From: a virus
IMG/VR virus record: IMGVR_UViG_3300045539_000120
Coordinates: 1-64,000 of that record
Strand: one strand, 5' to 3'
Length of the DNA: 64,000 nucleotides
Shown here: positions 15,187 through 57,500 of the stretch, piece after piece
Numbering within the stretch: the first letter of the stretch is position 1
Layout: every line of letters begins with the position of its first letter
Translations under genes and position numbers: made by a program
The notes under the pieces: model-generated
What the model was told of the DNA's origin: nothing
Databases searched by the model: none
What the model saw: only the letters and a program-made list of their open reading frames with translations

Positions 15187-15195
15187 AATTTAAAG

Positions 15196-15699: not shown

Positions 15700-15750
15700 A
15701 TTATATATATCTAAACACTAGTGACAAATTTTCCAACGTGTTAATTATAG

Positions 15751-15834
15751 TACCCAGGGCCAGACTCGAACTGGCACGGACATACTGTCCACAAGAGTTT
15801 AAGTCTTGCGTGGCTACCATTACACCACCTGGGC
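15751..15834 (-). tRNA. tRNA-Leu(TAA), type II with long variable arm
   Basis: acceptor GCCCAGG/CCTGGGT, anticodon loop CTTAAAC, variable hairpin GGACAGTATGTCC. Confidence 0.75.
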
Positions 15835-15921
15835 AGTTTTAATATTTAACAGGATAACCTTTTGTTGAGTTTACAGATTCAAGTTTTTAATTTGCTGAAT
15901 GTATCCTTCAATAAATATTAG

Positions 15922-15995
15922 TGGAGGTGACAGGAATCGAACCTGCGACCCTCTGCGTGCAAGGCAGATGCTCTAGCCAACTGAGCTACACCCCC
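15922..15995 (-). tRNA. tRNA-Ala(TGC)
   Basis: acceptor GGGGGTG/CACCTCC with G3-U70, anticodon loop CTTGCAC. Confidence 0.8.
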
Positions 15996-27749: not shown

Positions 27750-27994
27750 TTTCCTTTATGTGAACCCCATTGAAAGTTACCCATTCCAACTACAATATAT
27801 TCACAACCTTCAAGAGTGTATGTCCTATAAGTTCTATCAGAATATTGTGAAGTACTATCTAATTCGTAACGACTAGCACTAGTATTTTGATGTGGGTCTT
27901 TATAATTTTCTGGTTTGCAGCTAGTAACCATAAAGATTACTAGTGCAGCCAAGATTATTATTATTAATGGTATGGGTGAGTTTTGTCTATTCAT
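27719..27994 (-). CDS. small secreted or lipoprotein-like protein
   Basis: hydrophobic N-terminus ending VTSCKP. Confidence 0.35.
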   Translation of the reverse strand: MNRQNSPIPLIIIILAALVIFMVTSCKPENYKDPHQNTSASRYELDSTSQYSDRTYRTYTLEGCEYIVVGMGNFQWGSHKGNCTNIIHKQK

Positions 27995-29493
27995 TATAGA
28001 TTAGTTAAACGTTTTCTAATTTCTGTCAAAGTAGTTTGGTTTTCTAATTGGCCATTGATATAGATAGTTTTTAACATTCCTTTACTCTCATCTTCCCATG
28101 AGCATTGATCGACTAGCATATAACAATCGTTAATACTTTTATTAAAAATTTTAGCAACATGCAATAAACCTTTTGCAGATTTCTTAACACCATCATCTGT
28201 GATTGGATCTTTAAAGATTTCACGACCTTCGATTGTGTAAGCTGGACTTCCAGATTCTGCTGGATGTTTAACTTCTACATAGGTGGCTTTCATTGCAAAA
28301 CCAAATGTATCTCTAGTGTTATATTGGTATGTAAAACTTCCAACACCTAATACAATATTTGTACTTGCAAAACCTTTTGCCTCTAATCTTGTGAAGATTT
28401 GTTCAGCACGGTCTAATGTAATACTGTCTCCGTAGATTGCTCCAATATGAGGGTCTAATACTTTATAACCTTGGTCGTTAATAGTTCCACCAAATACATC
28501 CCAAAGTAATTCAATAACTCCTTTATCTTGTGGCATTGTTCCAGGAATACTGTACTCACAACCACAAATAATATCTACTGGATCACCAGAGTCAGGTCTA
28601 ATAACTACTTTACCATCACGGGCTAAAATCTCTTCTTTCAAAGTAACGATATGTTCGGTACAAACTTTCCATAAATCCCAAGTATCTGATACAATTGAAA
28701 GAATTCCTGTTGGATATGTTTCCATCAAGTTTCTAAATGTTCCAACCTCATCTTCTTTACTTCCAGCACACATCACTGAGTGTTCAGTCGCATTCACAGA
28801 TCCAGATACAAATCCAGTTTCATTATAGAATTTACGTGCTCCAAAGATTGCTGGTAAACTGTCTGAACCTGAGAAACTTGTCAAGTGACCTAATCCTGAA
28901 CTAATAGTTGCATCAATAGAATCCATACCTCTCATTGAGAAATCATGTGCTTGCCAATCTACGAACCAACCTTTTTCAGCATCAGTTTTTTCTTGCCATG
29001 AAGTAAATAATTTACGATATGCATGCGCAATAGTTGCAGAAGTCATTGGTTTCCATAACAGGTTAGAAATAACTGTTTCTAAATAATTTGTAATCCAATA
29101 GAAATCCGGATGTGTATTATAAATTGTCAATACTGGAACTCTCATTGGTACTAAACTACCTTCTTCAATTGATTTAACAACGATAGGCAAATAACCTAAA
29201 TCATGTAAAGCTTCGAAGTGAGATACGTCATAGTCTGTATTTAAATACATTGACAATTCATTTTTCATTTCTCCACAAACTTCATCTTTAGGTTTACTAA
29301 AGAAATCTTTTTCAAAAGCTTCGTGAATTTGTTTAACTACCATTTGTTGTCCAAATGATACTAATTGATCGCAACCTTGGGGTGCGTACTTATTACTACG
29401 AGGAGTAAAGTTAGAATAAACCAACGTTGTTCCTTTTGGATATTGTTGGTGATGTCCTGTTTTGTAACCGTCTGTTAAGAATAATGGATTCAT
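27994..29493 (-). CDS. nicotinamide phosphoribosyltransferase-family protein (NadV/NAMPT-like; could be a Namat-type enzyme)
   Basis: N-terminal NPLFLTDGYKTGHHQQYP signature and ~500-aa length. Confidence 0.75.
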   Translation of the reverse strand: MNPLFLTDGYKTGHHQQYPKGTTLVYSNFTPRSNKYAPQGCDQLVSFGQQMVVKQIHEAFEKDFFSKPKDEVCGEMKNELSMYLNTDYDVSHFEALHDLGYLPIVVKSIEEGSLVPMRVPVLTIYNTHPDFYWITNYLETVISNLLWKPMTSATIAHAYRKLFTSWQEKTDAEKGWFVDWQAHDFSMRGMDSIDATISSGLGHLTSFSGSDSLPAIFGARKFYNETGFVSGSVNATEHSVMCAGSKEDEVGTFRNLMETYPTGILSIVSDTWDLWKVCTEHIVTLKEEILARDGKVVIRPDSGDPVDIICGCEYSIPGTMPQDKGVIELLWDVFGGTINDQGYKVLDPHIGAIYGDSITLDRAEQIFTRLEAKGFASTNIVLGVGSFTYQYNTRDTFGFAMKATYVEVKHPAESGSPAYTIEGREIFKDPITDDGVKKSAKGLLHVAKIFNKSINDCYMLVDQCSWEDESKGMLKTIYINGQLENQTTLTEIRKRLTNL

Positions 29494-32568: not shown

Positions 32569-32784
32569 TTATATTAATTTTAAGTGTTTTAATTCCTCTA
32601 TTGCATCGTCAAATGCTTCTTGCCAAGTTCGGTGTAAATACCAATTTTTAATTTCGATTCTTTCGTAGTTTCCAAAATGTGTATACTTAAATATATCATA
32701 TGCATACTTAGGGGCACTCGTCTGGTCTAAACTTATTTCTATAATGTAACCACGTTCCGTATATAATGAATCAATGGTGTACAT
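32569..32784 (-). CDS. hypothetical protein
   Basis: 71-aa ORF. Confidence 0.4.
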   Translation of the reverse strand: MYTIDSLYTERGYIIEISLDQTSAPKYAYDIFKYTHFGNYERIEIKNWYLHRTWQEAFDDAIEELKHLKLI

Positions 32785-33680
32785 TATATTACCTTGAATG
32801 TTGTTGCGTTTGTTTTTTCTTCGTACTCATTATCTGCAATATCTCTGTGAGAATTTGTAGTATAAATATGTTCAAAGTATTGTGATAATTCTTTGAATCC
32901 AGCACTGAAAATACCATGTGTAACTATTAAATAAATCTTAGCACTTATTCTTTCATTCTTGATTGCTTTAGCTAATTCTATAAAAGTTCTACCGCCGTCA
33001 CATATATCGTCAATGATTACATATTTCATACCATCGTTAGCAGAGTTAGGGTCTCCAATAGATCCTGGTAAGTTTGGCAATTCAGTTTTAAGAATTTTAC
33101 CAGTTCTCATGTCTCGCACTTTATTTGCCGTAACAATATTTTGGATTTGAAACTTCTTAGCAACGTCGAAGATTTTCTTGTATGCTCCAGCATCTGGGCT
33201 TACTAAGCAAATTCTTTCTTGAGCATCTTTTCTATTATCAATTTCAGTAAGTGCATATTTAACTACAGTGTGATTATCTAATTTTTCATAGTTATTCAAA
33301 CATGCTTCTAAAACATCTGAATGTGGATCTAATGTAATTACCGTTACAAAATTTAAGGAATTAATAATTGGACAAATTACTTGTTTCAAATAATTAACTC
33401 CACCTTCAACAAATTTACGATCTGAACGAGCACCCATAAAGTATGGAACGTAAAGAGCAATTTCTCGATTTGGTTTAATATTTCTGATTGCTGCCGTTGC
33501 ACAAATAATTAATTCTAAATCTTTAAAACTATTTAAACGTGAACTAATTTTCACAGCATCTTCATATATTAATAAGTCATTCCATTCTATAAGGTCTACT
33601 GTTTGTTGACCATCTGGAAATTGACTAATTTTGTACTTGATTTGTGATTTTTCCGGATTAACTAAATCTAATGTTATCAT
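32784..33680 (-). CDS. ribose-phosphate pyrophosphokinase-like protein (PrsA-family; possibly ADPR-PP synthetase type)
   Basis: PRTase nucleotide loop VIIDDICDGGRTF and PRS-like N-terminal domain. Confidence 0.65.
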   Translation of the reverse strand: MITLDLVNPEKSQIKYKISQFPDGQQTVDLIEWNDLLIYEDAVKISSRLNSFKDLELIICATAAIRNIKPNREIALYVPYFMGARSDRKFVEGGVNYLKQVICPIINSLNFVTVITLDPHSDVLEACLNNYEKLDNHTVVKYALTEIDNRKDAQERICLVSPDAGAYKKIFDVAKKFQIQNIVTANKVRDMRTGKILKTELPNLPGSIGDPNSANDGMKYVIIDDICDGGRTFIELAKAIKNERISAKIYLIVTHGIFSAGFKELSQYFEHIYTTNSHRDIADNEYEEKTNATTFKVI

Positions 33681-41152: not shown

Positions 41153-41514
41153 GTACCGACTACAAGTTACGCTCTTGTCTGAAAATACTTATGAGATATT
41201 TTCGATCCTAGATCAAGTCGGCAATTATACTCCATACCCATCACGTTAAGGCTGATTATGGGCGACGCAACCTACGGTCAACTTTCGTTATGGAGTTTGC
41301 GGAAAGCAGAGGTATCGATCCCCATACCATTAAAGGTACGATTCGCTTAGCAAGCGGTCCTGAATCCTATTCAGTTTACTTTCCATTTAGAGAGACTTTG
41401 GGTCTTTCAGGGTTACTGGTTAAATGCAATGAGTGAGCTCTTCCTACTACTAACCCTTTTTCAGAAATTAATACACTCTACCTTTTAACTACAGCTTAAA
41501 CTGTCTCTCTATTG

Positions 41515-41594
41515 TACCCAGGGAGAGACTCGAACTCTCAAGCTTTCGCCACGGCTTCTAAGACCGCTGTGTCTACCAATTCCACCACCAAGGC
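41515..41594 (-). tRNA. tRNA-Leu(TAG), type II
   Basis: T-arm GAGAGTTCGAGTCTCTC, acceptor GCCTTGG/CCTGGGT (one mismatch), anticodon loop CTTAGAA, variable hairpin GCGAAAGC. Confidence 0.6.
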
Positions 41595-41691
41595 ATAAAG
41601 CCAATCCCGTAGATTGGCCGCTCAACTTAAGGTATTGAGTTTGCAAGAATAAATCTCTGACCAGGTCATGCGTCCTTTGGGCGCCGACAGT

Positions 41692-41763
41692 GACCCCGGT
41701 GGGACTCGAACCCACGACTCCCTGATTAAAAGTCAGGTGCTCTACCAACTGAGCTACGAAGTC
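41692..41763 (-). tRNA. tRNA-Lys(TTT)
   Basis: acceptor GACTTCG/CGGGGTC, D-arm GCTCAGTTGGTAGAGC, anticodon loop CTTTTAA. Confidence 0.8.
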
Positions 41764-41820
41764 TTGCCTTTTTTAGAGTTTTTATAGAACTCAAGGATAG
41801 TACAACCTATAAACTAAAGT

Positions 41821-41892
41821 AGCGGGTGAGGGACTCGAACCCCCGACCTTAAGCTTATGAGGCTCACGAGATACCAACTTCTACCAACCCGC
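41821..41892 (-). tRNA. tRNA-Met(CAT)
   Basis: acceptor GCGGGTT/CACCCGC, anticodon loop CTCATAA. Confidence 0.6.
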
Positions 41893-41903
41893 AATATATC
41901 TTG

Positions 41904-41975
41904 TAGTCAATAAAGGACTCGAACCCTTATTCCCGAGTTCGTAGCCCGGTGTTCTATCCATTGAACTAATCGACT
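41904..41975 (-). tRNA. tRNA-Arg(ACG)
   Basis: acceptor AGTCGAT/ATTGACT, anticodon stem CCGGG/CTCGG, loop CTACGAA. Confidence 0.75.
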
Positions 41976-41977
41976 AA

Positions 41978-42054
41978 TGGTGGTCCATTCAGGACTCGAA
42001 CCTGAGACCTACTGATTATGAGTCAGGCGCTCTAACCAACTGAGCTAAAAGACC
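41978..42054 (-). tRNA. tRNA-Met or tRNA-Ile2(CAT), CCA encoded
   Basis: D-arm GCTCAGTTGGTTAGAGC, anticodon loop CTCATAA, 3' ACCA. Confidence 0.65.
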
Positions 42055-42059
42055 ATTAA

Positions 42060-42470
42060 ATAATAAGTTGTTCCATACCGAACTATTAGGAACTATTAGG
42101 GCTTCTCGGACGAGGTGCACAACCCATAACGGCTATGATATGTTCTCTGTTACTTGGCTCCACCTACATGGATTAATCAGGAATCGAACCCACCTAATCG
42201 ATATATGCCTATATCAATGTTCACAGCATATCAACTTATCATTTTGCACAAGCAGAAGGGGTCGAACCTTCATCATCGGTTTTGGAGACCGGTATGCTAC
42301 CATTGCACCATACTTGTATTTTGTGGGAGATTATGGAATCGAACCATACCCTCTTACAGAACGATTTTACAGACCGCTTACATCACCAGATGCTGAAACC
42401 TCCCAAATTTAACTACCACCTGACTCCTTTCGAGCAGTGGAAACTCGTATCATTCAATTTTGGTAGTTAG
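42060..42470 (-). tRNA. tract of tRNA-like elements and fragments with aberrant arms
   Basis: several minus-strand T-loop signatures (RC of ggaatcgaacc, ggtcgaacc, ggaatcgaacc) without canonical full cloverleafs on hand-folding. Confidence 0.3.
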
Positions 42471-42471
42471 C

Positions 42472-42545
42472 TCCCCAGCTAGGACTCGAACCTAGGACCC
42501 CCTGATTAACAGTCAGGTGCTCTAACCAACTGAGCTACTGAGGAA
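42472..42545 (-). tRNA. tRNA-Asn(GTT)
   Basis: acceptor TCCTCAG/CTGGGGA, anticodon loop CTGTTAA, T-arm CTAGGTTCGAGTCCTAG. Confidence 0.8.
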
Positions 42546-42780
42546 TATTGTTGACTAATAAGGATTTGAACCTTAATCCTGTGTCCGCCCTCAGTCACTT
42601 CCGTACTTACTAACTTCTACTGTGCACCATACACCATAATCATTCCGAATGTTTCGAACCATTCAGTCTTAAGATTAATTACTTCTTAAGATTTGTTGCG
42701 ATTAGAGGAATCGAACCTCTCAGTGGTATATCTACCAAATCGTCTCATGAGAACGAACCTACACCGATATCGCAATTTAG
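42546..42780 (-). tRNA. tract of tRNA-like elements
   Basis: includes acceptor+T-arm minihelix TGACTGA...TAAGGTTCAAATCCTTA-TTAGTCA; a perfect 8-bp palindromic hairpin TCTTAAGA-agtaattaa-TCTTAAGA; further T-loop-like motifs. Confidence 0.3.
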
Positions 42781-42782
42781 TG

Positions 42783-42856
42783 TCTTTACATGGGATTCGA
42801 ACCCATACTCTTCGGGCTCAGTGCCCGCGTTCCAAACCAAGTTAAACTACGTAAAG
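42783..42856 (-). tRNA. tRNA-Gln(CTG)-like (4-bp anticodon stem)
   Basis: acceptor CTTTACG/TGTAAAG, anticodon hairpin CGGG-CACTGAG-CCCG, T-arm TGGGTTCGAATCCCA. Confidence 0.4.
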
Positions 42857-42954
42857 CAATCAATTAAAATTACAGAAATTAGTGTCGACAAATTTCTTTA
42901 AGCTATATGTAATCTTAATCGTTAGGAAGATATTGCTGATCAGGCATCTTCTTT

Positions 42955-43062
42955 GTAATTATGATTGGATTCGAACCAATTTCAGCTTTACAATAAAGAG
43001 TATATTTCAACTCAACCTTTGTGAGGTGCCGCCAACCAATGGCCTCATAATCATTTGTGGAT
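42955..43062 (-). tRNA. tRNA-like element with long extra arm and no readable standard anticodon
   Basis: acceptor GATTATG/CATAATT (G-U at bp 1) and T-arm ATTGGTTCGAATCCAAT. Confidence 0.25.
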
Positions 43063-43547
43063 AGAAACCAGACCTATCCTAGAGCTGCAGCTCTGTTATA
43101 ACTTATGCATCATCCTCAATGCTTCAACCCTTTGGCTATTACGGGTGTGGACTCGAACCACATTTTTCAGTTACCTATGCTTTTTCAAACTTGGTTTTAG
43201 TTGCTTTCCTTGCGCAAGGTTCATAACTAATTTCCAGTATCACCACGAGGAGGTGTTTGATTGATACCGCTACGCTTCGTTGGTACTTGCCGTTTCTTAA
43301 GTCGACACTTTCCCCGTTGCACGTTTTATTTAAGTGTACTTCCCTACTAGCGTCCTTGAAGCCAACACTTTTTAATTTGAGCTGCCTTATTACTAAGGTT
43401 TCGGATCGCATCTTTGATTAGGTAGCGAACCTATCATTAACGTCTCAAAGTAATTGTTAGTCTTTTCCTTACCTCTTAATAATTACACTGCCCGTCAGAT
43501 GTTACTGTCTGATGCTTACCAATCATACTGGGGTAATTATTAAATTG

Positions 43548-43619
43548 TAACGCCACGGAGAATCGAACTCCGATTTTTAGGATGAAAACCTAATGTCCTA
43601 ACCGTTAGACGATGGCGTC
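43548..43619 (-). tRNA. tRNA-Glu(TTC)
   Basis: acceptor GACGCCA/TGGCGTT, anticodon stem TTAGG/CCTAA, loop TTTTCAT, T-arm CGGAGTTCGATTCTCCG. Confidence 0.7.
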
Positions 43620-43651
43620 ATTTAAATTATTATCAAGATGTCAAATAACGT

Positions 43652-43727
43652 TTGTTCTAATTTGTTATGTAAATATAACTATAATATTTGAACCATGAAA
43701 ACTTTTTTCCAAAAGTTATTAACAATT
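43652..43727 (-). promoter_or_regulatory. conserved intergenic element copy heading a tRNA operon
   Basis: tgtcaaataacgtttgttctaatttgttatgtaaatataactataatatttgaaccatgaaaacttttttccaaaagttattaacaat; nearest downstream minus-strand feature is tRNA-Glu, no ATG. Confidence 0.5.
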
Positions 43728-43731
43728 TTTG

Positions 43732-43803
43732 AGCGACTAGAGAGAATCGAACTCTCATCTTCAGATTGGAAGTCTGAAGTAATGACCATTATACGATAGT
43801 CGC
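43732..43803 (-). tRNA. tRNA-Gly(TCC)
   Basis: perfect acceptor GCGACTA/TAGTCGC, anticodon loop CTTCCAA. Confidence 0.8.
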
Positions 43804-43812
43804 ATTGTATTG

Positions 43813-43901
43813 TGCAAGAAGCTGGGATCGAACCAGCGGCACGTCCATGTTCCTTCCAACCGAAGTACTGGGGATTGCTCTACCAACTGAGCTATTCTTG
43901 C
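43813..43901 (-). tRNA. tRNA-like gene with canonical acceptor, D- and T-arms but expanded, unfoldable anticodon region (possible Tyr-GTA type or pseudogene)
   Basis: acceptor GCAAGAA/TTCTTGC, D-arm GCTCAGTTGGTAGAGC, T-arm GCTGGTTCGATCCCAGC; 39 nt between D- and T-arms contains CAGTACT. Confidence 0.35.
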
Positions 43902-44044
43902 ATTTGGGTAGGTCAGAGGCCTTCTGCCTACCGAGACCTCGTCGTTGAACTTCTGGAAGCCAGAGCGTACCGAGACACTTTTTAAATAAAAATCAGGATC
44001 GGTTTGTTTTTAGTGCTCTACCAACTGAGCTACTTGCTTTTCAT

Positions 44045-44115
44045 CAAGATACACAAGGTCGGATTCGAACCGACGACCACTGCTTTAAAAGAGCTGTTTG
44101 TTACTGTTTGCTGTA
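44045..44115 (-). tRNA. tRNA-like element (T-arm GTCGGTTCGAATCCGAC)
   Basis: T-arm plus CTTTTAA-like loop, but stems not canonical. Confidence 0.25.
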
Positions 44116-44136
44116 ACGATCCTTATTATTTTATTG

Positions 44137-44209
44137 AGCTTCTGACCGGGTTCGAACCGATGACATCTTCATTACAAGTGAAGTGCTCTACCAACTAAGC
44201 TACAGAAGC
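44137..44209 (-). tRNA. tRNA-Thr(TGT)
   Basis: perfect acceptor GCTTCTG/CAGAAGC, anticodon stem CTTCA/TGAAG, loop CTTGTAA. Confidence 0.8.
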
Positions 44210-44271
44210 AAATTAGAGTTTTCGTATTATTAAAGCCAATACCCGGAATAATCTCTCAACCAAAACACTAG

Positions 44272-44342
44272 TCCCCTCAGGTGGAATCGAACCACCGCCA
44301 ATTGCATGTAAAACAATTACGCTACCATTACGCCATGTGGGG
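44272..44342 (-). tRNA. tRNA-Val(TAC)
   Basis: acceptor CCCCACA/TGAGGGG (one A-A mismatch), anticodon stem ATTGT/GCAAT, loop TTTACAT. Confidence 0.6.
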
Positions 44343-44401
44343 AATTCTAATTCTACGCTCACAATATGTAGTTCTATGAATTAGTAACAGTCTCGTCTGT
44401 G

Positions 44402-44472
44402 TCTAATAGGCAGGATTCGAACCTGCGTACTCCTCAGTCCAAGTGAGGCATGTGACCTAGCTTCGCTACTAG
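44402..44472 (-). tRNA. tRNA-Pro(TGG)-like
   Basis: acceptor CTAGTAG/CTATTAG, perfect anticodon stem CCTCA/TGAGG with loop CTTGGAC; D-arm atypical. Confidence 0.45.
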
Positions 44473-44483
44473 AAATTTAATTT

Positions 44484-44562
44484 GTTGCCTATGAAGGTAC
44501 TGACCCTCCTCCGATGCTGTCAAAGAGCATTGTACCACCTTTATACGAATAGGCAAAAAGTT
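44484..44562 (-). tRNA. tRNA-Gln(TTG)-like with aberrant T-loop (probable pseudogene)
   Basis: acceptor GCCTATT/CATAGGC, anticodon hairpin ATGCT-CTTTGAC-AGCAT; T-loop lacks the TTCGA motif. Confidence 0.3.
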
Positions 44563-44566
44563 TCAG

Positions 44567-44639
44567 TGGACCCTACAGGAATCGAACCTGTTCCTCTAGT
44601 TCTTCAGACTAGCGTACGCACCAGCTATACCAAAGGTCC
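44567..44639 (-). tRNA. tRNA-Phe(GAA)
   Basis: acceptor GGACCTT/AGGGTCC, anticodon stem CTAGT/ACTAG, loop CTGAAGA. Confidence 0.75.
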
Positions 44640-44655
44640 ATCTATTATTACCAAT

Positions 44656-44750
44656 ATGTCAAATAACGTTTGTTTTAATTTCTTATACAAATATAACTAT
44701 TACATTTGAAATAAAAAAACTTTTAATGTTAAATTTATGTTAACATTTTT
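44656..44750 (-). promoter_or_regulatory. degenerate element copy heading a tRNA operon
   Basis: atgtcaaataacgtttgttttaatttcttatacaaatataactattacatttga...; shares an extra 5' segment (tgtcaaataacgtttgtt) with the 43652 copy. Confidence 0.4.
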
Positions 44751-44751
44751 G

Positions 44752-44822
44752 AGTTCAGTATTGGAATCGAACCAATATCTCAGAGTTTGCAATCCTGCGC
44801 CTAACCATTCGGCCAACCGAAC
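44752..44822 (-). tRNA. tRNA-Cys(GCA)
   Basis: acceptor GTTCGGT/ACTGAAC, anticodon loop TTGCAAA (as in E. coli tRNA-Cys), T-arm ATTGGTTCGATTCCAAT. Confidence 0.6.
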
Positions 44823-45125
44823 TTGTAAAATCAAAAAAGGACCAATCATTTCTGAAAGGTCCTTTTGAATATATTATATGTTAATAGCGCTTAGCTCATA
44901 CTAACATTTCTTTTTTCAAAAAGACCAACTTGCTTCCATTCATTATAAAAGGGACATATCGTGCCAACCATTCCTAGGACCGGTTGAAAACTATTTATAT
45001 GTTGCTGAGTTGTTTGCATTTTAATTGTTTTGTTCTTAATAAACAAGAGCGTTAATGTTCTTGTGTTAATTATATATCTATATATCTTTTTGTTTCAGTG
45101 AATTCACACTTTATTTAAATTATTT

Positions 45126-45413
45126 TCAAAAAAGTTCATTTCCATGATTCTTTATTATCTTTATGATAATATCTCCATGACATGGGCCTGGTTTGCACCA
45201 ACATCCAAGTGTCTTTCCTTTTAATTCTTGTAAACTTTCCATCAGTTCACTATTTGAAAGTAGATATTTTTCATATGCACTTATTGCTTCCTTTATTGTG
45301 TTTACTTTAAATTCTGCAAGTGTTCCATCTTTATGCGAATATGGATTTCCCCAAATACTTGGCCTTCCGATATAAACATCGTATGGTTCTTTATTTATAT
45401 GTACTACTTTCAT
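45126..45413 (-). CDS. DUF4326-like protein
   Basis: GRPSIWGNPY ... CWCKPGPCHGD pattern. Confidence 0.5.
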   Translation of the reverse strand: MKVVHINKEPYDVYIGRPSIWGNPYSHKDGTLAEFKVNTIKEAISAYEKYLLSNSELMESLQELKGKTLGCWCKPGPCHGDIIIKIIKNHGNELF

Positions 45414-45416
45414 TTG

Positions 45417-45490
45417 TGATTCGGACAGGATTCGAACCTGTGGCCTACGGTTTAGAAAACCGTTGCTCTATCCGGCTGAGCTACCGAACC
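45417..45490 (-). tRNA. tRNA-Arg(TCT)
   Basis: acceptor GGTTCGG/CCGAATC, anticodon stem ACGGT/ACCGT, loop TTTCTAA. Confidence 0.8.
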
Positions 45491-45941: not shown

Positions 45942-46112
45942 TTATTTTACTGAATCAATTTTAACTGTAGCAGAATCTGTTTGAACTAATGTACTATCAG
46001 TTTGAACTAATGTACTGTCAGTTGTTGTAGTTTCTTCAGTTGTTGCTGAATTGTTTTTGCAAGAAGTCAATGTTGCGATAGCTATTAAAGCTAATAAAAA
46101 TACTTTTTTCAT
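45942..46112 (-). CDS. small lipoprotein with tandem DSTLVQT repeat (56 aa)
   Basis: MKKVFLLALIAIATLTSCKNN lipobox; below ORF-track cutoff. Confidence 0.35.
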   Translation of the reverse strand: MKKVFLLALIAIATLTSCKNNSATTEETTTTDSTLVQTDSTLVQTDSATVKIDSVK

Positions 46113-46177: not shown

Positions 46178-46675
46178 TTATTTTTTAATTTCTTTCATTT
46201 TTTCTATAGCCCAATCGACTCCTTCATCTCCACCCCATAGTAACCAAGCAACGTATCCTCGGTCTTTCCATGGAGTGTCTTTATATTCGGGTGCAATTGT
46301 AGAATTTTTGCGATGTCTATTAAATTGTGCAATACGTGAAACTACATCTGCTGAAAGTTTTTCACCTTTAGATAATTGGCTTGCACGTTGCCATCCTACT
46401 GGAGTACCTGCATCAACTTCATCTCTACCATATTCGTCTCGCCATTCAATTGCCTGTTTTGCATTTTTCTTTGCGGCTGCAGGATAATCGCCATACGTTT
46501 CTTCTGCCTCATTTAAGGACTCTTCAACTTTTATTTCAATAGGGGAATTATCATGGCCACATTCATGGCAAATAAATGGATCTTCTCCACCATCTTCTAA
46601 TCTCCATTTCCAACCACAATTATCGCACTGTACTTGATTTGCTGAAAATTCGTCAAATAATTTTATTTTTTTCAT
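46178..46675 (-). CDS. hypothetical protein with zinc-ribbon; shares its N-terminus with the next two genes
   Basis: MKKIKLFDEF...CDNCGW...CHECGH. Confidence 0.45.
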   Translation of the reverse strand: MKKIKLFDEFSANQVQCDNCGWKWRLEDGGEDPFICHECGHDNSPIEIKVEESLNEAEETYGDYPAAAKKNAKQAIEWRDEYGRDEVDAGTPVGWQRASQLSKGEKLSADVVSRIAQFNRHRKNSTIAPEYKDTPWKDRGYVAWLLWGGDEGVDWAIEKMKEIKK

Positions 46676-46688
46676 AATTTAATACACT

Positions 46689-47702
46689 CTATTTTACCGA
46701 AATAGGATCTAAACTTGATTTATATTCTTCAGGATATTCACTAGCCATCATGCTTCTATGTTTATTTACAATTTCTTGTAATTCTTCTTCGCATTCTTTA
46801 GATATATCAATACCTAATGCCATTTTTTGAAATGATTTGTAAATTGAAAGAAACATTGATGGTCCAATTCCTGGAGCTCCATTAATTTCTGGTACCCATA
46901 AAGCACCTGATTTATCTAGGATTAAATCAATATTATAAAATTCAAGTTTAACACTCTTATTAAGTTCGTCCATGATTTCATTGATTCTATCAATATGTTC
47001 AAATGTTTCTAGGTTCTGATCAAAATAAACAAGGTCTATTTTCTCATCTATTCCTTTTTTACCAACTGACATATCATTATTCGCATTAGTAATTCTTTCA
47101 GCGATATGAATAACCTTTTTATCCATTATAAATGCACGAAATTCACGATCTATTTCTTTACCTTCTTGCCAAACATCAAACGTTGATTTACTCTTTTTAG
47201 CATCATCGTATGTATCAAATTTCTCAATACCTTGTGCACTGAAACCTTGTGATGGTTTTGCAATTATTGGCAAATCTAAGTTTTCAATATCATCTAATGA
47301 ATATACCGTCTTTGGAATAAAATTAGTATTTGGGAAAGTTTTATAAAATAATTTTTTATCAGCACTTAATTGCAAATCTTCAATTTTATTATAAACCTTT
47401 GCTTGCATATCAGATACAAAATTATGATCCGTAGAAGTAAAGTTTAAAAGTGGAACATTGTATTTAATTTTATTAAATCTTCTATTGCCTGGTATTCTGT
47501 CTTCTCTATTATATTCATCACTTCCATCAATCAAAACCATGTGGATATATTTGTCATAAAGTGTTGCCATTAATTCTTTGGTAAAATCTTCAGTTTTAGA
47601 AGTTAAACCAATAGTTCCTCTTAATGTGATTTGTAATTGTGGGATTTGGTCGTCGATGTATCTTTCATTTAAGAACTCCTCGAATAATTTGATTTTTTTC
47701 AT
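46689..47702 (-). CDS. ATP-grasp-fold ligase-like protein (paralog A)
   Basis: PIIAKPSQGFSAQGIEKF (nucleotide-binding loop-like) and EINGAPG near the C-terminus; N-terminus MKKIKLFEEF. Confidence 0.5.
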   Translation of the reverse strand: MKKIKLFEEFLNERYIDDQIPQLQITLRGTIGLTSKTEDFTKELMATLYDKYIHMVLIDGSDEYNREDRIPGNRRFNKIKYNVPLLNFTSTDHNFVSDMQAKVYNKIEDLQLSADKKLFYKTFPNTNFIPKTVYSLDDIENLDLPIIAKPSQGFSAQGIEKFDTYDDAKKSKSTFDVWQEGKEIDREFRAFIMDKKVIHIAERITNANNDMSVGKKGIDEKIDLVYFDQNLETFEHIDRINEIMDELNKSVKLEFYNIDLILDKSGALWVPEINGAPGIGPSMFLSIYKSFQKMALGIDISKECEEELQEIVNKHRSMMASEYPEEYKSSLDPISVK

Positions 47703-48646
47703 TATAATTTGATTTCAAAATTTTTAGTTTTGTCTGAGGCTGTAACCTCATCCATGTATTTACTTAGTTTATCTATTTCGGTATTAGATTCTTTAGATAG
47801 ATCTTTTTTATAAAAATCTTTAAAGATTAATTTATATAATTCATTAGGTACGTTAAAAGGTGAACCTGGGTGACTGTTTCCTTCAATTACATATATTTTA
47901 CCATCTTTGTCTTCCATAATATCGAAACAAACAAATGGTAAATCTTTGAATATTTCAGCAAATTCGGAAACAACATCACTAAAGTTTTTTGGTAATTTAT
48001 TAATGTCCTTTTTAATGTACTTAAACATCATTCGATCTTCACCGTTACCATTCCCTGATTTAGCTTTATCATTTACTGGATTTCTTTCCATCCAAAAGAA
48101 TGGAGTTCCTTTAAATAACATAACTCTATGTTCTGATTTTTTATCAACGTACACAGAATAAACATTAAATTTTGAATGATCTGCAGCATCCCAATCTTTT
48201 TGATTTTTAAAGATTTGAATACCTAATCCAGAATGTCCTTTTGCTGGTTTTGCAATTAGGGGAAATCCAATCTTTAAAGCATCTTCAGTATTATATGCAG
48301 TTTTCGGTATGTTATCATTTCCATTTACTCGTTTATGGAATTCTTTCTTAGAACCAACGATTGGATAAAATTCCGGAAGATTATATACATTTTCTTTTTT
48401 AATTCTACCAGAATCTAATAAATCTTGAGAAATTGTCTTATTGTAAGTTAATACTGGAAATTCTTTGTCAATATTAATTTTATCGTAATTTTCTGGAGTA
48501 ATCCATTTGTAAATTGAAGAATCTTTAAAATCCTTATGATTATACCACTTTTGATCTGGTCCATCCATTGTGATATAAATTTTGTGCAAATCAGAATTAT
48601 TTTCTTTCTCTGTAATAAACTCCTCAAATAATTTAATTCTTTTCAT
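47702..48646 (-). CDS. ATP-grasp-fold ligase-like protein (paralog B)
   Basis: PLIAKPAKGHSGLGIQIF and VIEGNSHPG; N-terminus MKRIKLFEEF. Confidence 0.5.
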   Translation of the reverse strand: MKRIKLFEEFITEKENNSDLHKIYITMDGPDQKWYNHKDFKDSSIYKWITPENYDKINIDKEFPVLTYNKTISQDLLDSGRIKKENVYNLPEFYPIVGSKKEFHKRVNGNDNIPKTAYNTEDALKIGFPLIAKPAKGHSGLGIQIFKNQKDWDAADHSKFNVYSVYVDKKSEHRVMLFKGTPFFWMERNPVNDKAKSGNGNGEDRMMFKYIKKDINKLPKNFSDVVSEFAEIFKDLPFVCFDIMEDKDGKIYVIEGNSHPGSPFNVPNELYKLIFKDFYKKDLSKESNTEIDKLSKYMDEVTASDKTKNFEIKL

Positions 48647-48661
48647 TTATTATATATTTAT

Positions 48662-49225
48662 TTATATACCTTTAAATTCTGCAAATGGCTTGATATCGCT
48701 TCTACCTGATTCAGAGTATATTTTATATGCATTTCTTTTATCACTGCTTGATAAATCATTGTACATTTTCAAGATTTCCTTTTCTTGTTGAGATCCTTTA
48801 TTATACACATTAGAACTATCAGAGTACATGTATGTGCTATCAAAACCTTTGAAATTTAATTCCCATCGTTCTAGTGGAGTTAAACCCTTATTAGTTAATA
48901 TGGTATGAATATCAGATTCTGACATTTTCTTTTTATTTAGATACCATTCCCAACTTCCTAAAAATCTACCAATTTTAAATGCATGCAAGGTATCTCCTGT
49001 TGTAGTTTTAATTTCGAATTTGATTCCTTTTTTATCATCTGAAATATCTTCCACTGAAGATATCCACTTATCATCAAACGTTGGAGCTAAATGTTTAGCT
49101 CTAATTGTTACATCACTTTCCAAATCATCTCTAAGTTTTTCGATATTGTTTCCAAGTTTATCACCATTCTTACTATAATCAGAATATGTTTGGTATGCTT
49201 CGAATGTCATTACTATTTTGCTCAT
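48662..49225 (-). CDS. hypothetical protein
   Basis: 187-aa ORF. Confidence 0.45.
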   Translation of the reverse strand: MSKIVMTFEAYQTYSDYSKNGDKLGNNIEKLRDDLESDVTIRAKHLAPTFDDKWISSVEDISDDKKGIKFEIKTTTGDTLHAFKIGRFLGSWEWYLNKKKMSESDIHTILTNKGLTPLERWELNFKGFDSTYMYSDSSNVYNKGSQQEKEILKMYNDLSSSDKRNAYKIYSESGRSDIKPFAEFKGI

Positions 49226-52347: not shown

Positions 52348-52800
52348 TTAGAACGGCCCTTCGGCAACTTGCATACATGTGATACCATTGTCTCTCCACA
52401 TTTTAACTACCTTGTCTCTATCATCAAAAACACACATAACGTTATGTCCATCTTGAATCAAATCATCTAACCACATTTTTTTAAGTTTATCATCAGGCGT
52501 AAAACTTCCGTTTTTACGCATTTTCAAAAATGCAGGTTTAATTCCAAATGTTGCTAACCAATCAATGGTAACTTCTCTACTAATATCATCTCTACCACTA
52601 AAGATTCCAACTGTAAAACCTGCAAGTTGTAATGCCTTGAATGTATTAATTACTGGCCAGTTTGGTTTATCCAATCCAATATTTACTGGATTAAAAAAAG
52701 CTTTCCAATTCATTTTTCCATCAGGAAATGTGGCCAATGCTCGTCTTTCATCGATAAGGGCAAGTGTACCATCTAAATCGAAAATTACAGTCTGTGTCAT
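52348..52800 (-). CDS. HAD-superfamily phosphatase (PNK 3'-phosphatase-like)
   Basis: N-terminal VIFDLDGTL motif. Confidence 0.55.
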   Translation of the reverse strand: MTQTVIFDLDGTLALIDERRALATFPDGKMNWKAFFNPVNIGLDKPNWPVINTFKALQLAGFTVGIFSGRDDISREVTIDWLATFGIKPAFLKMRKNGSFTPDDKLKKMWLDDLIQDGHNVMCVFDDRDKVVKMWRDNGITCMQVAEGPF

Positions 52801-53612: not shown

Positions 53613-53700
53613 GTTTTTAGTATTTAATTATAATGTAAATATAATCAATTCCGGTGACATAAAAAAACTTTTAATACTTTTTTATTAAATATTTTTCATA
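53612..53700 (-). promoter_or_regulatory. conserved intergenic element copy (variant)
   Basis: tttttagtatttaattataatgtaaatataatcaattccggtgacataaaaaaactttt. Confidence 0.4.
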
Positions 53701-54273
53701 ACTTCCTTTAACTGATTTATTTGGAAAATAATACGTCTTAAATAATTTTCCATTAAGTGTTATAACCTTTGAAAAACCAGTTGGAATGCTTGCTCCTGTG
53801 GGTAATCTAGATGATTTTGAGAAATCAACGTAAATTGTAATTGTAACTATATTATTGATGGCAAGTTCCTTCTCGTATGCTTCAAGTTCCTTCCAAGGTC
53901 CACGGTTAAGGTCTTTATGTTGCAATGCACAATTTACATAAGAAAATGTTCTTTTTAAATCATTTAAGTTACAATTAAATGCAGCAGCAGGAGCCATGTG
54001 TCCCTTGTCCCATTGATTATTAAAATAGTCAGCATCATCTGATGTGTGTATTGTTGGCTCTTTATAAAATGTTAATCCACTTCTACTATAATATTTCTTA
54101 GATAATTTATTGCATGTTATTTTATATTCAATTTGAGTAGGTTGTTCCAACTCCTGTGAATAAATGATATGATATGTTTGGTTTTTAATATCTACGTTTG
54201 GAAGCGAAGTATTAAATGCTAAAAAAAGGCATGTAAACAATAATGTAAACATGCCAATTAAAATCTTCTTCAT
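53671..54273 (-). CDS. secreted DNA/RNA non-specific endonuclease (NUC/EndoG-like)
   Basis: signal peptide MKKILIGMFTLLFTCLFLA and active-site-like NQWDKGHMAPAA. Confidence 0.6.
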   Translation of the reverse strand: MKKILIGMFTLLFTCLFLAFNTSLPNVDIKNQTYHIIYSQELEQPTQIEYKITCNKLSKKYYSRSGLTFYKEPTIHTSDDADYFNNQWDKGHMAPAAAFNCNLNDLKRTFSYVNCALQHKDLNRGPWKELEAYEKELAINNIVTITIYVDFSKSSRLPTGASIPTGFSKVITLNGKLFKTYYFPNKSVKGSYEKYLIKKY

Positions 54274-54594: not shown

Positions 54595-54672
54595 GTCTAA
54601 GTATTTTTATTTATAATTATACTAAATGGGTTGGTTTTGTTTCATAAAAAAACCCAGAAATTCTGGGTTTTG

Positions 54673-54757
54673 CGGAGGATGTAGGATTCGAACCTACGGT
54701 ACCTTGCGGTACAACAGTTTTCAAGACTGCCGCGATCGACCACTCTGCCAATCCTCC
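54673..54757 (-). tRNA. tRNA-Ser(TGA), type II
   Basis: perfect acceptor GGAGGAT/ATCCTCC, anticodon loop CTTGAAA, variable hairpin GTACC-gcaa-GGTAC, T-arm GTAGGTTCGAATCCTAC. Confidence 0.8.
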
Positions 54758-54803: not shown

Positions 54804-57500
54804 TTATTGTTTAGAAACATCAATAATTTTAATTGCTCTATCAAATCTTGCTTCCAAGTCTTGTATTGCATCTATCAATGGCTGTAAATCAATTGATTCG
54901 CCAGCGGCTTTAGTATCTTTATTTATTTTATCTGCTGTTTTCTTAACTCCTATTACTGTTTCTTTAACTGTGTCCATTACACCAGAAACAACGTCTCCAA
55001 TTCCACTGGTAGCCTTTCCTTGTGTTTCAACTGATTTTTCAAGATTTTCCACAGTTCCAGATAATTGTTTAACTGCTTCTAATAATTTATCGGCTAAAAC
55101 TGACATTGCAGATTCTCCTTTATTTTTGGCAAGATCAGTTAATGCAGTAAACATACTCGTAGTTGCATTAATTGCTGGAATATTCATAACCTTACTAGAA
55201 TCGGCAATCATCTTATATGATTTTCCTATTTTAACGCTTGCATCTGCACGTGCATTAAAATCATCAACATCAACTTCATCATTAAAGTTAATAGCAGCTT
55301 CAAACGCTTTCATAACTCCACCTGCTGCAAGGTTAATTGCAGAGAACCCTTTACCAACTTCGGTTAATGGTTTTGCTAAGTTTTGTATATTTGGACCTAA
55401 TAATGCAATTTTTTCAAGTAATTCAATTGGCGATGGAGTATCTCCTCCAAATAATTTTCCGATTCCTTCGAATAATCCTCCAATTGCAGTTCCAATTCCA
55501 CCCACAACACTTGCTCCACCTATTGCTGCAGAGAATATTAACCATGCTCCTCCTAATGCTGCAACACCAACTGCAAGACCAAGCATATTTTCAATTCCTA
55601 TTTCATTTTTAAATCTTGCAAAAACATCTACGATACCATTTATTGGTGCTAATAATACTTCGGTTATTCCCTTTGCAACAGTAACCAATGATGGCATGGC
55701 AGGGGCTAACGCTGATAAAATCCAACCAACTGCAACTATAGTGATTGCTGCTACAATAATTCCAAGTGCTCCTAATAATAAGGTCACTGGTGTTAGTGCA
55801 GTAACCGCAATTCCCATTACCACTATGGCGGCACCCATAACTCCAAGAGCAAGAGCAACATTCATGGTCCAATCCTGCGGAGGTGCAATCATCGCTGATG
55901 GTAAAAGTTGAAATAACCACGCGACTGCTACTACTGCGAATGCAGCAACAACTACACCAACAAGAGCCTTTAACATATCGCCTATTCCCATTTTTCCAAC
56001 TGTTTTGCTAGATAGCCAAAGAATTGTACCAAATATAACAACTGACAATCCGGCCTTTAACGTCCATCCTGGTTCAGGTGCTACAAAATCAATTCCGCCT
56101 AATGCTTGAAAAATCCATGCAGTTGCAAGAACTCCAAATGCAACTATTGGAATAGCAAGTGTCATAAATAACATTTCTTTAATATTCATTCCTCCAATTG
56201 CCTTCGATATAATATAGAATGGAATTGCAAATATTAATAGTGCAAATCCTGCTTTAAGAACCCACATTGGATCTGGAGCAACCCATGTACTAACATCTCC
56301 TAATAATCCAAATATAAATGCCGTAGCAACAATTCCAATTGCCATCAATGGAATGGCTATTGAACCAAATATAAGTTCTTTAATACTTGCTCTTTTAACT
56401 GCTTTCAATATAAAGTAAAATCCTATTGCAAATAATCCAATTGCGAATGCAGATTTTAAAGTCCACATTGGATCTGGAGCAACCCATGTACTAACATCTC
56501 CTAACATTCCAAATATAAGTGCAACTCCAAGAATTGATACTGCCATTAATGGAATAGCAACTGATGCAAAAATAATATCTTTTAAACTTGCTCTTTTAAT
56601 TGCTTTTAATATAAAACTGAATCCAATTGCAAATAATCCAATAGCCAATCCAGCTCTTAAAGTCCATCCTAAATCCGGAGCAACCGGATTACTTGGCATT
56701 AACATAAATGCATAAGCAACTCCAACAACTCCTATGGCAATTGCTACCATAGATAAACTTACCATACCTAATGTCATTAATCCCTTCTTATCGGCTGTTA
56801 AACCACTCTTAGTTAATGATCGAGTTATCATTCCAAATGACAATGATAAAAAGATAAAAGCGATTCCTATCAATGCAGCTGTTGCAAATTGTGCAAACGA
56901 AATTGGCTTTACCATAGAAAGAATATATGAAGCAGCAGTAGTTCCAGCTGCCATTATCACCATGGCAAGTCCAACACCTGCAAGTAATTTACTCATACTT
57001 GGAGTATCTCCATTTCCTACTCCTGATACCTTTCCAATTATCCTATCAGTTAGGCCAGGTCCTTTAAACGCTTCACTTATTTTAACAAACATAGGTACTA
57101 ACATTACGAATAATACTCCAAGTGCTAGGGCCGTTAATATTTGTATAGCGCTAACAGGTTGCATATATCCTAGAATTCCAGAAGCAGCAACTAAAGCACC
57201 TGCCATTATTACGATTGCAACACCAGTTTTGGCAGCACCCATAATACCTGGCATTTTAGTTTTTCCTCCACCTCCAGAACCACCTTCTTTTTGATCAGCT
57301 TGTTGTTTTAATAAACCTTTAATATCTAATAAAACATCAGTTTGTTTTTTTAATTCCTTTACTGTATCTATTGCATAAGTACTAAGACTTATAACAACGG
57401 CGTTAATTTGCATTAAAATACTAGCGGATGCCTCGGAAGCTTCTGCTATTCTTTGTAATGGCGATGCTAAAATTGAAAGTTGTTTTGTATTATTAGTCAC
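54804..57500 (-). CDS. tape-measure-like protein with highly hydrophobic tandem internal repeats
   Basis: 898 aa; Gly-rich linker GGSGGGGKTK; at least 4 repeats of ~71 aa (AP(D/E)P(M/G)WTLKAGxAxxxFAIxFxxIxKAxxxxxIKExxF...), coiled-coil C-terminus; position downstream of the sheath-tube genes; could instead be a membrane protein. Confidence 0.45.
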   Translation of the reverse strand: MTNNTKQLSILASPLQRIAEASEASASILMQINAVVISLSTYAIDTVKELKKQTDVLLDIKGLLKQQADQKEGGSGGGGKTKMPGIMGAAKTGVAIVIMAGALVAASGILGYMQPVSAIQILTALALGVLFVMLVPMFVKISEAFKGPGLTDRIIGKVSGVGNGDTPSMSKLLAGVGLAMVIMAAGTTAASYILSMVKPISFAQFATAALIGIAFIFLSLSFGMITRSLTKSGLTADKKGLMTLGMVSLSMVAIAIGVVGVAYAFMLMPSNPVAPDLGWTLRAGLAIGLFAIGFSFILKAIKRASLKDIIFASVAIPLMAVSILGVALIFGMLGDVSTWVAPDPMWTLKSAFAIGLFAIGFYFILKAVKRASIKELIFGSIAIPLMAIGIVATAFIFGLLGDVSTWVAPDPMWVLKAGFALLIFAIPFYIISKAIGGMNIKEMLFMTLAIPIVAFGVLATAWIFQALGGIDFVAPEPGWTLKAGLSVVIFGTILWLSSKTVGKMGIGDMLKALVGVVVAAFAVVAVAWLFQLLPSAMIAPPQDWTMNVALALGVMGAAIVVMGIAVTALTPVTLLLGALGIIVAAITIVAVGWILSALAPAMPSLVTVAKGITEVLLAPINGIVDVFARFKNEIGIENMLGLAVGVAALGGAWLIFSAAIGGASVVGGIGTAIGGLFEGIGKLFGGDTPSPIELLEKIALLGPNIQNLAKPLTEVGKGFSAINLAAGGVMKAFEAAINFNDEVDVDDFNARADASVKIGKSYKMIADSSKVMNIPAINATTSMFTALTDLAKNKGESAMSVLADKLLEAVKQLSGTVENLEKSVETQGKATSGIGDVVSGVMDTVKETVIGVKKTADKINKDTKAAGESIDLQPLIDAIQDLEARFDRAIKIIDVSKQ

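Follow-up and report, generated by a model that had tools for sequence, protein, structure and literature searches.

A short N-terminal tag on ATP-grasp ligases and many unrelated proteins of huge T4-related phages resembles the T4 capsid targeting sequence

Introduction

Why should three adjacent phage genes, two of them encoding ATP-grasp paralogs and the third a protein unrelated to these, begin with the same ten residues? The question is raised by a 64,000-nucleotide stretch of viral DNA (positions 1 to 64,000 of IMG/VR record IMGVR_UViG_3300045539_000120, hereafter the window), in which a first-pass annotation had noticed the shared decapeptide and had suggested, likening it to a leader, that the genes could form a peptide-modification or protein-tagging module. 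Our own reading is different: the peptide, which we call the tag, is probably, with a fair amount of room for doubt, a capsid-targeting and processing signal of the T4 type, and the two ligases and the third protein, which carries a helical domain named X here, would be cargo that is packaged and injected. Injected phage proteins act ahead of any phage gene expression, serve as counter-defence weapons in T4 and are hard to recognise from sequence; to our knowledge, about ten such internal proteins are known, all of them in T-even phages.

Among sequenced phages, the lineage that uses the tag, one of large T4-related myoviruses, is closest to metagenomic huge phages and to the Tenacibaculum jumbo phages. 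That huge uncultivated T4-related phages pre-load their capsid, by means of one detachable 13-residue tag, with a sizeable and rapidly changing repertoire of enzymes and counter-defence proteins that are injected with the DNA is a broader claim, on which we find the balance even. If it is true, a simple sequence pattern lists, from metagenomes, the injected cargo of an uncultivated huge-phage lineage, more than 100 families mostly of no known function, and this list points to new counter-defence and host-takeover activities, the two ATP-grasp ligases included. ATP-dependent ligases would then arrive ready-made, a host target being modified in the first seconds of infection, and the question would shift from the joint product of the trio to the reason for shipping these enzymes in the virion.

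A selected N-terminal peptide on three consecutive genes

The window is AT-rich (32% GC) and nearly all of its genes lie on the minus strand, as do the three considered here, which the first-pass annotation had placed correctly without giving the strand. From upstream to downstream, they are a 314-residue open reading frame (ORF) for an ATP-grasp ligase (47702..48646, start MKRIKLFEEFITE), a 337-residue ORF for its paralog (46689..47702, start MKKIKLFEEFLNE), the start of which overlaps the stop of the upstream 314-residue gene (ATGA), and a 165-residue ORF (46178..46675, start MKKIKLFDEFSAN) whose product consists of the tag, a zinc ribbon, a linker and helical domain X. These putative cargo proteins, 1 to 3 in that order, start with MKRIKLFEEF, MKKIKLFEEF and MKKIKLFDEF, respectively. 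When the window was searched in six frames for M[KR][KR]I[KR]LF[ED][ED]F, exactly three sites were found, each the start of an ORF, and the looser pattern [LIVM]F[ED][ED]F returned the same three sites only. A position-specific scoring matrix (PSSM) built from 158 tags and applied to the N-termini of the window gave 28-38 bits for the three tags, 3.7 bits for the next best start (that of the gene at 48662-49225) and less than -2.6 bits for the rest. Both searches thus confirm that the decapeptide is shared by three consecutive genes.

The DNA underneath the peptide differs among the copies. Over the first ten codons, synonymous divergence (pS) between the three genes was 0.52-1.09 versus a nonsynonymous divergence (pN) of 0.04-0.08. 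Since the synonymous sites are saturated and the peptide is near-invariant, it is the peptide that has been selected, as had been proposed earlier, and not a recent copy of the DNA. These values bear directly on the idea that the tag has no function at the protein level and is a by-product of translation initiation (A-rich codons after the AUG in an AT-rich, Shine-Dalgarno-poor genome) or a scar of cassette shuffling. MKK starts are common in the window, and in T-even phages cassette exchange has been connected with the conservation of internal-protein genes at their 5′ ends (Repoila et al. 1994, as it is cited in PMC12373910). However, synonymous saturation under a near-invariant peptide (pS 0.5-1.1, pN 0.04-0.08) is at odds with both origins, the conserved F-E-E-F-[IL]-x-E is not rich in A, cellular genomes, Bacteroidota included, essentially lack the motif, and the information content of the tag stops sharply at E13. 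An origin of this kind is very improbable. Chance and simple paralogy were also rejected as sources of the tag, the third tagged protein being unrelated to the ligases and the tag occurring on about 100 families. A signal peptide was rejected because acidic residues break up the hydrophobic run. Near-identical DNA was sought among GenBank phages and none was found.

It had been suggested that the shared N-terminus might form a common interaction helix. The helix itself was recovered in AlphaFold2 (AF2) models of the 314- and 165-residue proteins, but it is flexible, unpacked on the folded core and of low confidence (predicted local distance difference test, pLDDT, of 46-66 over residues 1-20). 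The 314-residue model has a pLDDT of 50-66 over residues 1-20 with the helix at 7-17, and in the 165-residue model residues 1-11 of the tag are disordered.

The tag and the T4 capsid targeting sequence

A logo of the 158 distinct N-termini reads M-K-[RK]-I-K-L-F-E-[EQ]-F-[IL]-x-E, with information high through position 13 and an abrupt drop thereafter. The most conserved positions are F7 and F10 (149/158 and 150/158), and 124 of the 158 tags combine an aliphatic residue at position 11 with Glu at 13. This end, [IL]-x-E, is the motif at which gp21, the prohead protease of T4, cleaves, and it reads ITE and LNE in the two ligases: the 13-residue tag of the 314-residue protein (48608..48646, minus strand) ends in the predicted cleavage site I11-T12-E13/K14 and that of the 337-residue protein (47664..47702, minus strand) in L11-N12-E13/R14, the slash marking the cut. 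In the 165-residue protein, the targeting part MKKIKLFDEF (46646..46675, minus strand) is followed at residues 11-13 by SAN, without [IL]xE, a variant that recurs among the zinc-ribbon members of its family.

The T4 internal proteins IPII and IPIII, whose starts we read from the T4 genome, begin MKTYQEFIAE/A. Residues 4 and 7 (Y and F) of this capsid targeting sequence (CTS) serve targeting and residues 8 and 10 (I and E) processing, and an Asp at position 10 blocks cleavage while targeting is kept (PMC9026906). When YQEFIAE and FEEFLNE are aligned from the cut, they agree at all four functional positions, F7 and F10 of the tag standing opposite Y4 and F7 of T4, so that both have aromatics at -7 and -4, an aliphatic residue at -3 and Glu at -1. 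Homologs of the 337-residue protein bridge the 13-mer to the T4-length form (MKTLLSYTQFLNE, MTFGEFLNE, MKSFLEFINE and MKTFNEFINN).

As with the T4 CTS (found on IPI, IPII, IPIII and Alt, and cleaved by gp21), a short N-terminal leader is the only similarity among unrelated, non-essential proteins. Counter-defence proteins are among the cargo, known or putative, of both, the T4 proteins Ip1-3 being counter-defence proteins that inhibit restriction (PMC12373910), and just as the ipII and ipIII genes adjoin a tRNA cluster in T4, so does the trio in the window. In contrast, the tag of the lineage has 13 residues rather than 10, with an extra basic K-I-K turn, and the cargo is about ten times larger (at least about 102 families versus about 10), including enzymes of some size (ATP-grasp ligases and Acb1-like, GNAT and nucleotidyltransferase-like proteins). 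Furthermore, in the lineage protease and scaffold are parts of one protein, fusion proteins can contain the tag internally, and targeting is a prediction from genes.

If the tag works as a CTS, its amphipathic N-terminal helix, with the aromatics at -7 and -4 from the cut, would bind the scaffolding core of the assembling prohead, and the tagged protein would become enclosed. A prohead protease of the gp21 family (S77) would then cut after the Glu of [IL]-x-E (E13) and free the mature protein inside the head, from which it would leave with the DNA at infection and act in the new host ahead of phage gene expression. The T4 CTS is used in phage engineering; the tag would serve likewise as a natural, short and cleavable signal by which foreign proteins are brought into large phage heads.

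Spread of the tag among viruses

A DNA scan of IMG/VR for the exact tag (the back-translated decapeptide) found 57 ORFs on 46 contigs, belonging to at least 19 unrelated families. When combined with a scan for the looser pattern M-x-x-[IV]-K-L-F-E-[EQ]-F, it yielded at least 225 unique tagged ORFs of 50-380 residues and, among the matches listed, at least about 102 families, most of which sit in loci without an ATP-grasp gene. Tagged genes form arrays of up to 6 per 2.5 kb (locus L080). The commonest family in the exact-tag scan is an Acb1-like 2H phosphoesterase (PF23474, 31.3 bits against a cutoff of 27); other recognisable tagged proteins are Tad3-like (PF25185, E 3e-15), GNAT, GATase1/DJ-1-like, cytidylyltransferase-like and P-loop kinase proteins. 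The Acb1-like, Tad3-like and GNAT families are of kinds typical of counter-defence. The tag is nearly always N-terminal, except that in some fusion proteins a second copy marks the junction of two domains. The N-terminal similarity, whose absence from homologs had been named as a possible objection, is well kept: nearly all of the homologs listed for each of the three window families carry the tag or a shortened form of it.

As a cellular control, the same DNA pattern was searched in 596 Gb of bacterial and archaeal genomes. It gave 63 ORF matches, mostly at internal Met codons or in spurious ORFs, and only one of the 63 has [LIVMF] at position 11 together with E13, versus 124 of 158 in the viral set. 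The tag is essentially absent from cellular genomes, including those of Bacteroidota. Maribacter phage Molly has an Acb1-like homolog that lacks the tag. From this homolog and the cellular control, it follows that the tag is specific to viruses and to a lineage, and not to particular protein families. Full-text literature searches for the tag sequence returned no paper containing it.

In two more distant phages of 630-640 kb (LR745206.1 and LR756502.1; loci L051 and L052), five to seven of about a dozen adjacent ORFs share related N-termini, with variants such as MKHLKKFNES, MNHLRRFNEN, MKYIKLFESI and MKYIKYFEAI. It thus seems that the tag family extends over the whole huge-phage clade, each lineage having a dialect of its own.

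Tagged genes and head assembly

In the window, the genes for terminase (gp17-like), sheath (gp18-like) and tube are arranged as in T4. Its tail sheath is closest to that of the 462-kb metagenomic phage LR756500.1 (49% identity), followed by those of other huge phages, Lak phages and Tenacibaculum jumbo phages. Head genes of the lineage were found on contig L018, which encodes a portal protein, a fusion of protease and scaffold, and a major capsid protein (MCP). The protease matches Peptidase_S77, the gp21 family (Pfam PF03420, 41.7 bits against a cutoff of 27), as well as T4 gp21 itself by tblastn; its best relative is again in LR756500.1 (65% identity), with the Lak and Tenacibaculum phage homologs next, and the homolog in Tenacibaculum phage PTm1 is annotated as "prohead core scaffolding protein and protease". 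Across 19 loci with portal, protease-scaffold or MCP homologs, we counted 21 tagged genes, 12 lying between portal and protease and 9 between protease-scaffold and MCP. In T4, the prohead-core genes 67 and 68 sit between the portal (20) and protease (21) genes. The capsid proteins of the lineage start with M-x-x-L-I-N-E-[AS], which is another [LI]xE site.

Two other delivery systems invite comparison. The phiKZ-like giants (phiKZ, 201phi2-1 and SPN3US) are likewise myoviruses of large size, their prohead protease is related to gp21 and cleaves behind Glu, and they inject many head-internal proteins, among them paralogs with identical N-terminal propeptides such as SPN3US gp53 and gp54 (PMC5694885). 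However, their motif is [AGS]-x-E, for which we found no enrichment in the scaffolds of the lineage that were examined, their propeptides are mostly longer than 100 residues, and no single short tag extends across dozens of families. The polyvalent and the MuF- or portal-fused effectors, together with the Dar proteins of phage P1, deliver anti-defence and host-modifying domains (2H phosphoesterase, GNAT) with the DNA (PMC7824862), and domain X itself occurs inside such head-assembly fusions. In those systems, the delivered domain is covalently joined to a head protein, whereas the lineage has separate small genes, each with a tag that would be detachable.

The 165-residue protein and domain X

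The third protein carries a zinc ribbon, as first read from the letters: C17xxC20 and C36xxC39 (46559..46627, minus strand) give weak Pfam zinc-ribbon matches and are modelled by AF2 with a pLDDT of 74-83. A disordered linker follows (residues 47-56, pLDDT < 50), in which L54-N55-E56 (46508..46516, minus strand) is a predicted internal protease site directly ahead of domain X. This five-helix domain (residues 57-165; 46181..46507, minus strand) is modelled with very high confidence, and family and structure searches returned no match for it. The family comprises 406 homologs of many architectures, most of which start with the tag. Where a zinc ribbon or DUF5824 has been inserted, it sits behind the tag, which remains at the extreme N-terminus. 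In 85 of 101 family members, [LIMVF]xE (usually LNE/AEETY) directly precedes X, and this holds for 67 of the 79 in which the site is internal. The predicted protease site of the window protein appears, from its sequence, to have moved to L54-N55-E56/A57. The zinc ribbon would have been inserted inside the tag, and cleavage at the predicted site would free X alone.

Outside the tagged lineage, domain X is found within the 889-residue "prohead protease" of Halogranum virus HGTV-1 (gp11), within the 1140-residue portal/MuF protein of HRTV-28 (gp10), in a gene between portal and capsid in roseophage CRP-823 (gene 40) and within the capsid maturation protease of phage DSL-LC01 (loci L053-L056 in our set). 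In these viruses, X would enter the procapsid as part of a head-assembly protein, and X of the tagged lineage has the tag instead. X, a helical domain of about 100 residues, occurs in this way within head-assembly proteins from haloarchaeal tailed viruses, roseophages and actinophages, and it appears to be a capsid-interior domain that is widespread but undescribed.

Several fusion proteins have an internal tag at a domain junction, such as X-tag-GNAT and X-tag-zinc ribbon (P0133, P0161, P0180, P0186-P0204, P0209, P0219, P0226 and P0235). In some of them, M-K-x-I-K has decayed while LFEEFLLE stays, as though it were a polyprotein cleavage site.

Capsid targeting or another signal

These fusions bring up the most serious competing explanation, namely that the tag is a signal for recognition and cleavage, localisation or turnover unrelated to encapsidation: a propeptide whose removal by a phage or host protease activates or times the protein, a degron or an address for some other phage-built structure. 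The survival of the core LFE[EQ]F[IL]xE where M-K-x-I-K has decayed (e.g. ...ITERKSLFEEFLLEK...) fits a protease site better than an N-terminal address; tandem arrays drawn from at least about 102 tagged families resemble early host-takeover gene arrays, and metabolic enzymes are found among the tagged proteins. However, a non-capsid signal would leave unexplained both the tagged genes within the portal-protease-capsid block of 19 loci and the fusion of domain X to head-assembly proteins elsewhere, and it would make it a coincidence that the tag agrees with the T4 CTS at both targeting positions. Moreover, the only protease known for [IL]xE-type sites in relatives of the lineage is the prohead protease, which is active inside proheads (PMC9026906). 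We consider a non-capsid signal unlikely, yet it deserves to be kept in mind.

A number of observations nevertheless weigh against capsid targeting. Packaging of the tagged proteins is something that we infer here from their genes. The cargo repertoire, with at least about 102 families and arrays of up to 6 genes per 2.5 kb, is far from the roughly ten internal proteins of the T-even phages, and some of the tagged proteins resemble ordinary metabolic enzymes (cytidylyltransferase-like, P-loop kinase). The 165-residue protein has no [IL]xE at positions 11-13 of its tag. The head module lies outside the window, so the gp21-type protease of this phage is deduced from relatives, and in the closest complete relative, LR756500.1, the stretch from portal through protease to capsid gene is free of tagged genes and the ATP-grasp protein starts with a diverged MKFIKPYEEF. 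In the scaffold regions of 13 of 13 protease-scaffold proteins, [LI]xE is about twofold enriched, but the reversed control E.[LI] is enriched in 8 of the 13 as well. Finally, the promoter sequences gave no sign of late expression: a TATATAA element, described below, fails to separate them from non-structural genes, and the T4 late promoter TATAAATA is not enriched in the window (16 found versus 15.5 expected).

The two ATP-grasp ligases

Both the 314- and the 337-residue proteins gave weak ATP-grasp matches in a Pfam search, the latter passing PF07478 (26.1 bits against a cutoff of 24). The AF2 model of the 314-residue protein (pLDDT 88, predicted template modelling score 0.87) was compared with the PDB by Foldseek: ArgX/LysX, D-Ala-D-Ala ligase and RimK came out on top (E ~1e-11), 613 chains matched at E<=1e-3, the graspetide ligase PsnB among them, and the best template modelling score was 0.62, with RimK bound to S6 (5zk6). 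The 314-residue protein has the loop AKPAKGHSGLGI and the motif EGNSHPG; its ATP-binding Lys and glycine-rich loop (IAKPAKGHSGLGI, residues 131-143) are encoded at 48218..48256 and its Mg-binding E-x-N motif (residues 255-261) at 47864..47884, both on the minus strand. In the 337-residue protein, the loop reads AKPSQGFSAQGI, with Ala in place of its second glycine, and the corresponding motif is EINGAPG. According to the alignment of the paralogs, its ATP-binding Lys and loop lie in the IIAKPSQGFSAQGI region (residues 147-159, 47226..47264, minus strand), and its E-x-N motif covers residues 272-278 (46869..46889, minus strand).

Although the paralogs are only 26% identical overall, residues K133, E172, R174, D242, E255 and N257 are invariant over 84 aligned sequences that include both, as are the loop residues K133, P134, S139, G142 and I143. 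The identification of the two genes as ATP-grasp paralogs with these motifs was therefore right, apart from the Gly to Ala replacement in the loop of the second, and both are genuine ATP-grasp proteins that are apparently catalytically active, as predicted from fold and residues. Their families comprise 164 homologs for the 314-residue protein, nearly all of them tagged, and 85 for the 337-residue one. In ATP-grasp variants of 376-381 residues, an extra domain has been inserted behind the tag, which stays at the extreme N-terminus.

RimK, LysX and ArgX add amino acids to protein C-termini. The window ligases share with this clade the ATP-binding Lys, the glycine loop and the D...E-x-N Mg ligands. 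However, sequence identity is only 13-18%, the window ligases have the extra N-terminal tag, and there is no S6- or LysW-like partner gene. By sequence, neither belongs to the RimK family (NCBIfam TIGR00768: 18.7 bits against a cutoff of 143.4 for the 337-residue protein and no match for the 314-residue one), so the resemblance is one of fold only. The modelled fold points to ligation of an amino acid onto a carboxylate, which might be the C-terminus of a protein, as it is for RimK, LysX and ArgX, and our guess would be that a host protein or small molecule is modified early in infection.

It is here that the module proposed by the first-pass annotation has to be weighed, in which the N-terminus would be a common leader or interaction helix and the zinc-ribbon protein a substrate or partner of the ligases. 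Graspetide ATP-grasp ligases recognise helical leader peptides, and PsnB, as noted, is among the fold matches of the 314-residue model. Both ligases look catalytically competent, with a fold nearest to that of the protein C-terminus ligases, and the ATP-grasp gene is directly followed by the X gene in the window and in two relatives, L032 and L177, and lies close to it in a third locus, L004. Against this, the tag is found on at least about 102 unrelated families, most in loci without ATP-grasp, and it is borne by the enzymes themselves and not by a small substrate peptide; no small precursor-peptide ORF carries it and its neighbours vary, unlike what is expected of a graspetide-type ribosomally synthesized and post-translationally modified peptide. 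The second paralog is missing from close relatives, X is not beside the ATP-grasp gene in L178 and L179, and the C-termini of the X family are not conserved, being Lys/Glu-rich and variable. A private leader binding the trio into a modification or tagging module is thus not supported, and we judge it improbable. The ligases possibly do modify a protein. For an action on the C-terminus of the X protein in particular, the data argue neither way, gene adjacency not being universal.

Conservation of the trio and its surroundings

When the same trio was sought in related phages, the three genes proved not to be conserved as a unit. In the closest relatives, L032 and L177, a single ATP-grasp gene of the 314-residue type is followed by the X gene and the 337-residue paralog is absent; L178 has a tagged Acb1-like gene, then an ATP-grasp gene with an extra domain, and no X; in L179 the ATP-grasp gene stands alone. 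Seven additional genes separate the homolog of the 187-residue gene (see below) from the ATP-grasp gene in L032. The cluster in the window behaves as a variable cargo hot-spot on a conserved backbone (a guanylate-kinase-like gene and a sigma factor), and not as an operon of interacting parts, although the repeated adjacency of ATP-grasp and X genes could still be functional.

Directly upstream of the trio lies a 187-residue gene (48662..49225, minus strand), whose protein had no match in Pfam and PHROG searches. Its degenerate tag-like start, MSKIVMTFEAY, has the fourth-best PSSM score, and its homologs start with MKAIMTFEKY (L032) and MSKIIMTFEAY (L177), to be compared with MKYIMTFESI in the arrays of LR756502.1; it may be a fourth tagged cargo gene.

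A TATATAA element (48662..48668, minus strand) stands 22 nt upstream of the first tagged gene as a tentative promoter. TATATAA also precedes the tail-sheath, tail-tube and guanylate-kinase-like genes, at a distance of 25-34 nt, and, since the last of these has it too, the element does not date expression. On the gene strand, 18 of 31 copies of TATATAA[TA] fall in the non-coding 15.5% of the window. Copies 10-42 nt upstream of gene starts (e.g. 62633, 59660, 52337, 48668, 46154 and 45875) make it a candidate -10 element of a phage promoter.

Directly downstream of the trio, at 45942-46112 (minus strand), is a 56-residue lipoprotein-like ORF (MKKVFLLALIAIATLTSC...) with a tandem TDSTLVQ-TDSTLVQ repeat. 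Just downstream, too, is a cluster of 18 of the 24 tRNA genes in the window (41514-45490), the others being located at 3527-3613, 15110-15995 and 54672-54757. There are duplicates for Met, Tyr, Pro, Leu and Arg, and two of the tRNAs are longer than usual, one for Tyr (43812-43901, 90 nt) and one for Pro (3527-3613, 87 nt, with the anticodon at position 37).

Other genes of the window and its relatives

Two genes on the minus strand, at 27994-29493 and 32784-33680, match PHROG families for nicotinamide phosphoribosyltransferase and ribose-phosphate pyrophosphokinase. Such an enzyme pair carries out NAD+ salvage of the kind linked to the countering of NAD-depleting defences. At 53671-54273 (minus strand), we found a 200-residue protein that starts much like a signal peptide and matches Endonuclease_NS in Pfam; it is therefore probably a secreted or periplasmic non-specific nuclease, and its gene adjoins a HAD_PNKP-like gene of 150 residues at 52348-52800. 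Downstream of the terminase-sheath-tube block lies an 898-residue ORF (54804-57500, minus strand), overlapped by several long antisense ORFs. It occupies roughly the place of the T4 portal gene, yet it shows no similarity to gp20 and had no PHROG or Pfam match.

In LR756500.1 (loci L001 and L050), we observed several copies of a protein of about 330-600 residues with a conserved C-terminal module (…NGVYWHNE…HLQGN…GGASRLFK…). These copies resemble homing-endonuclease or mobile-gene families and lie among core genes, including positions next to split ribonucleotide reductase and DNA polymerase genes.

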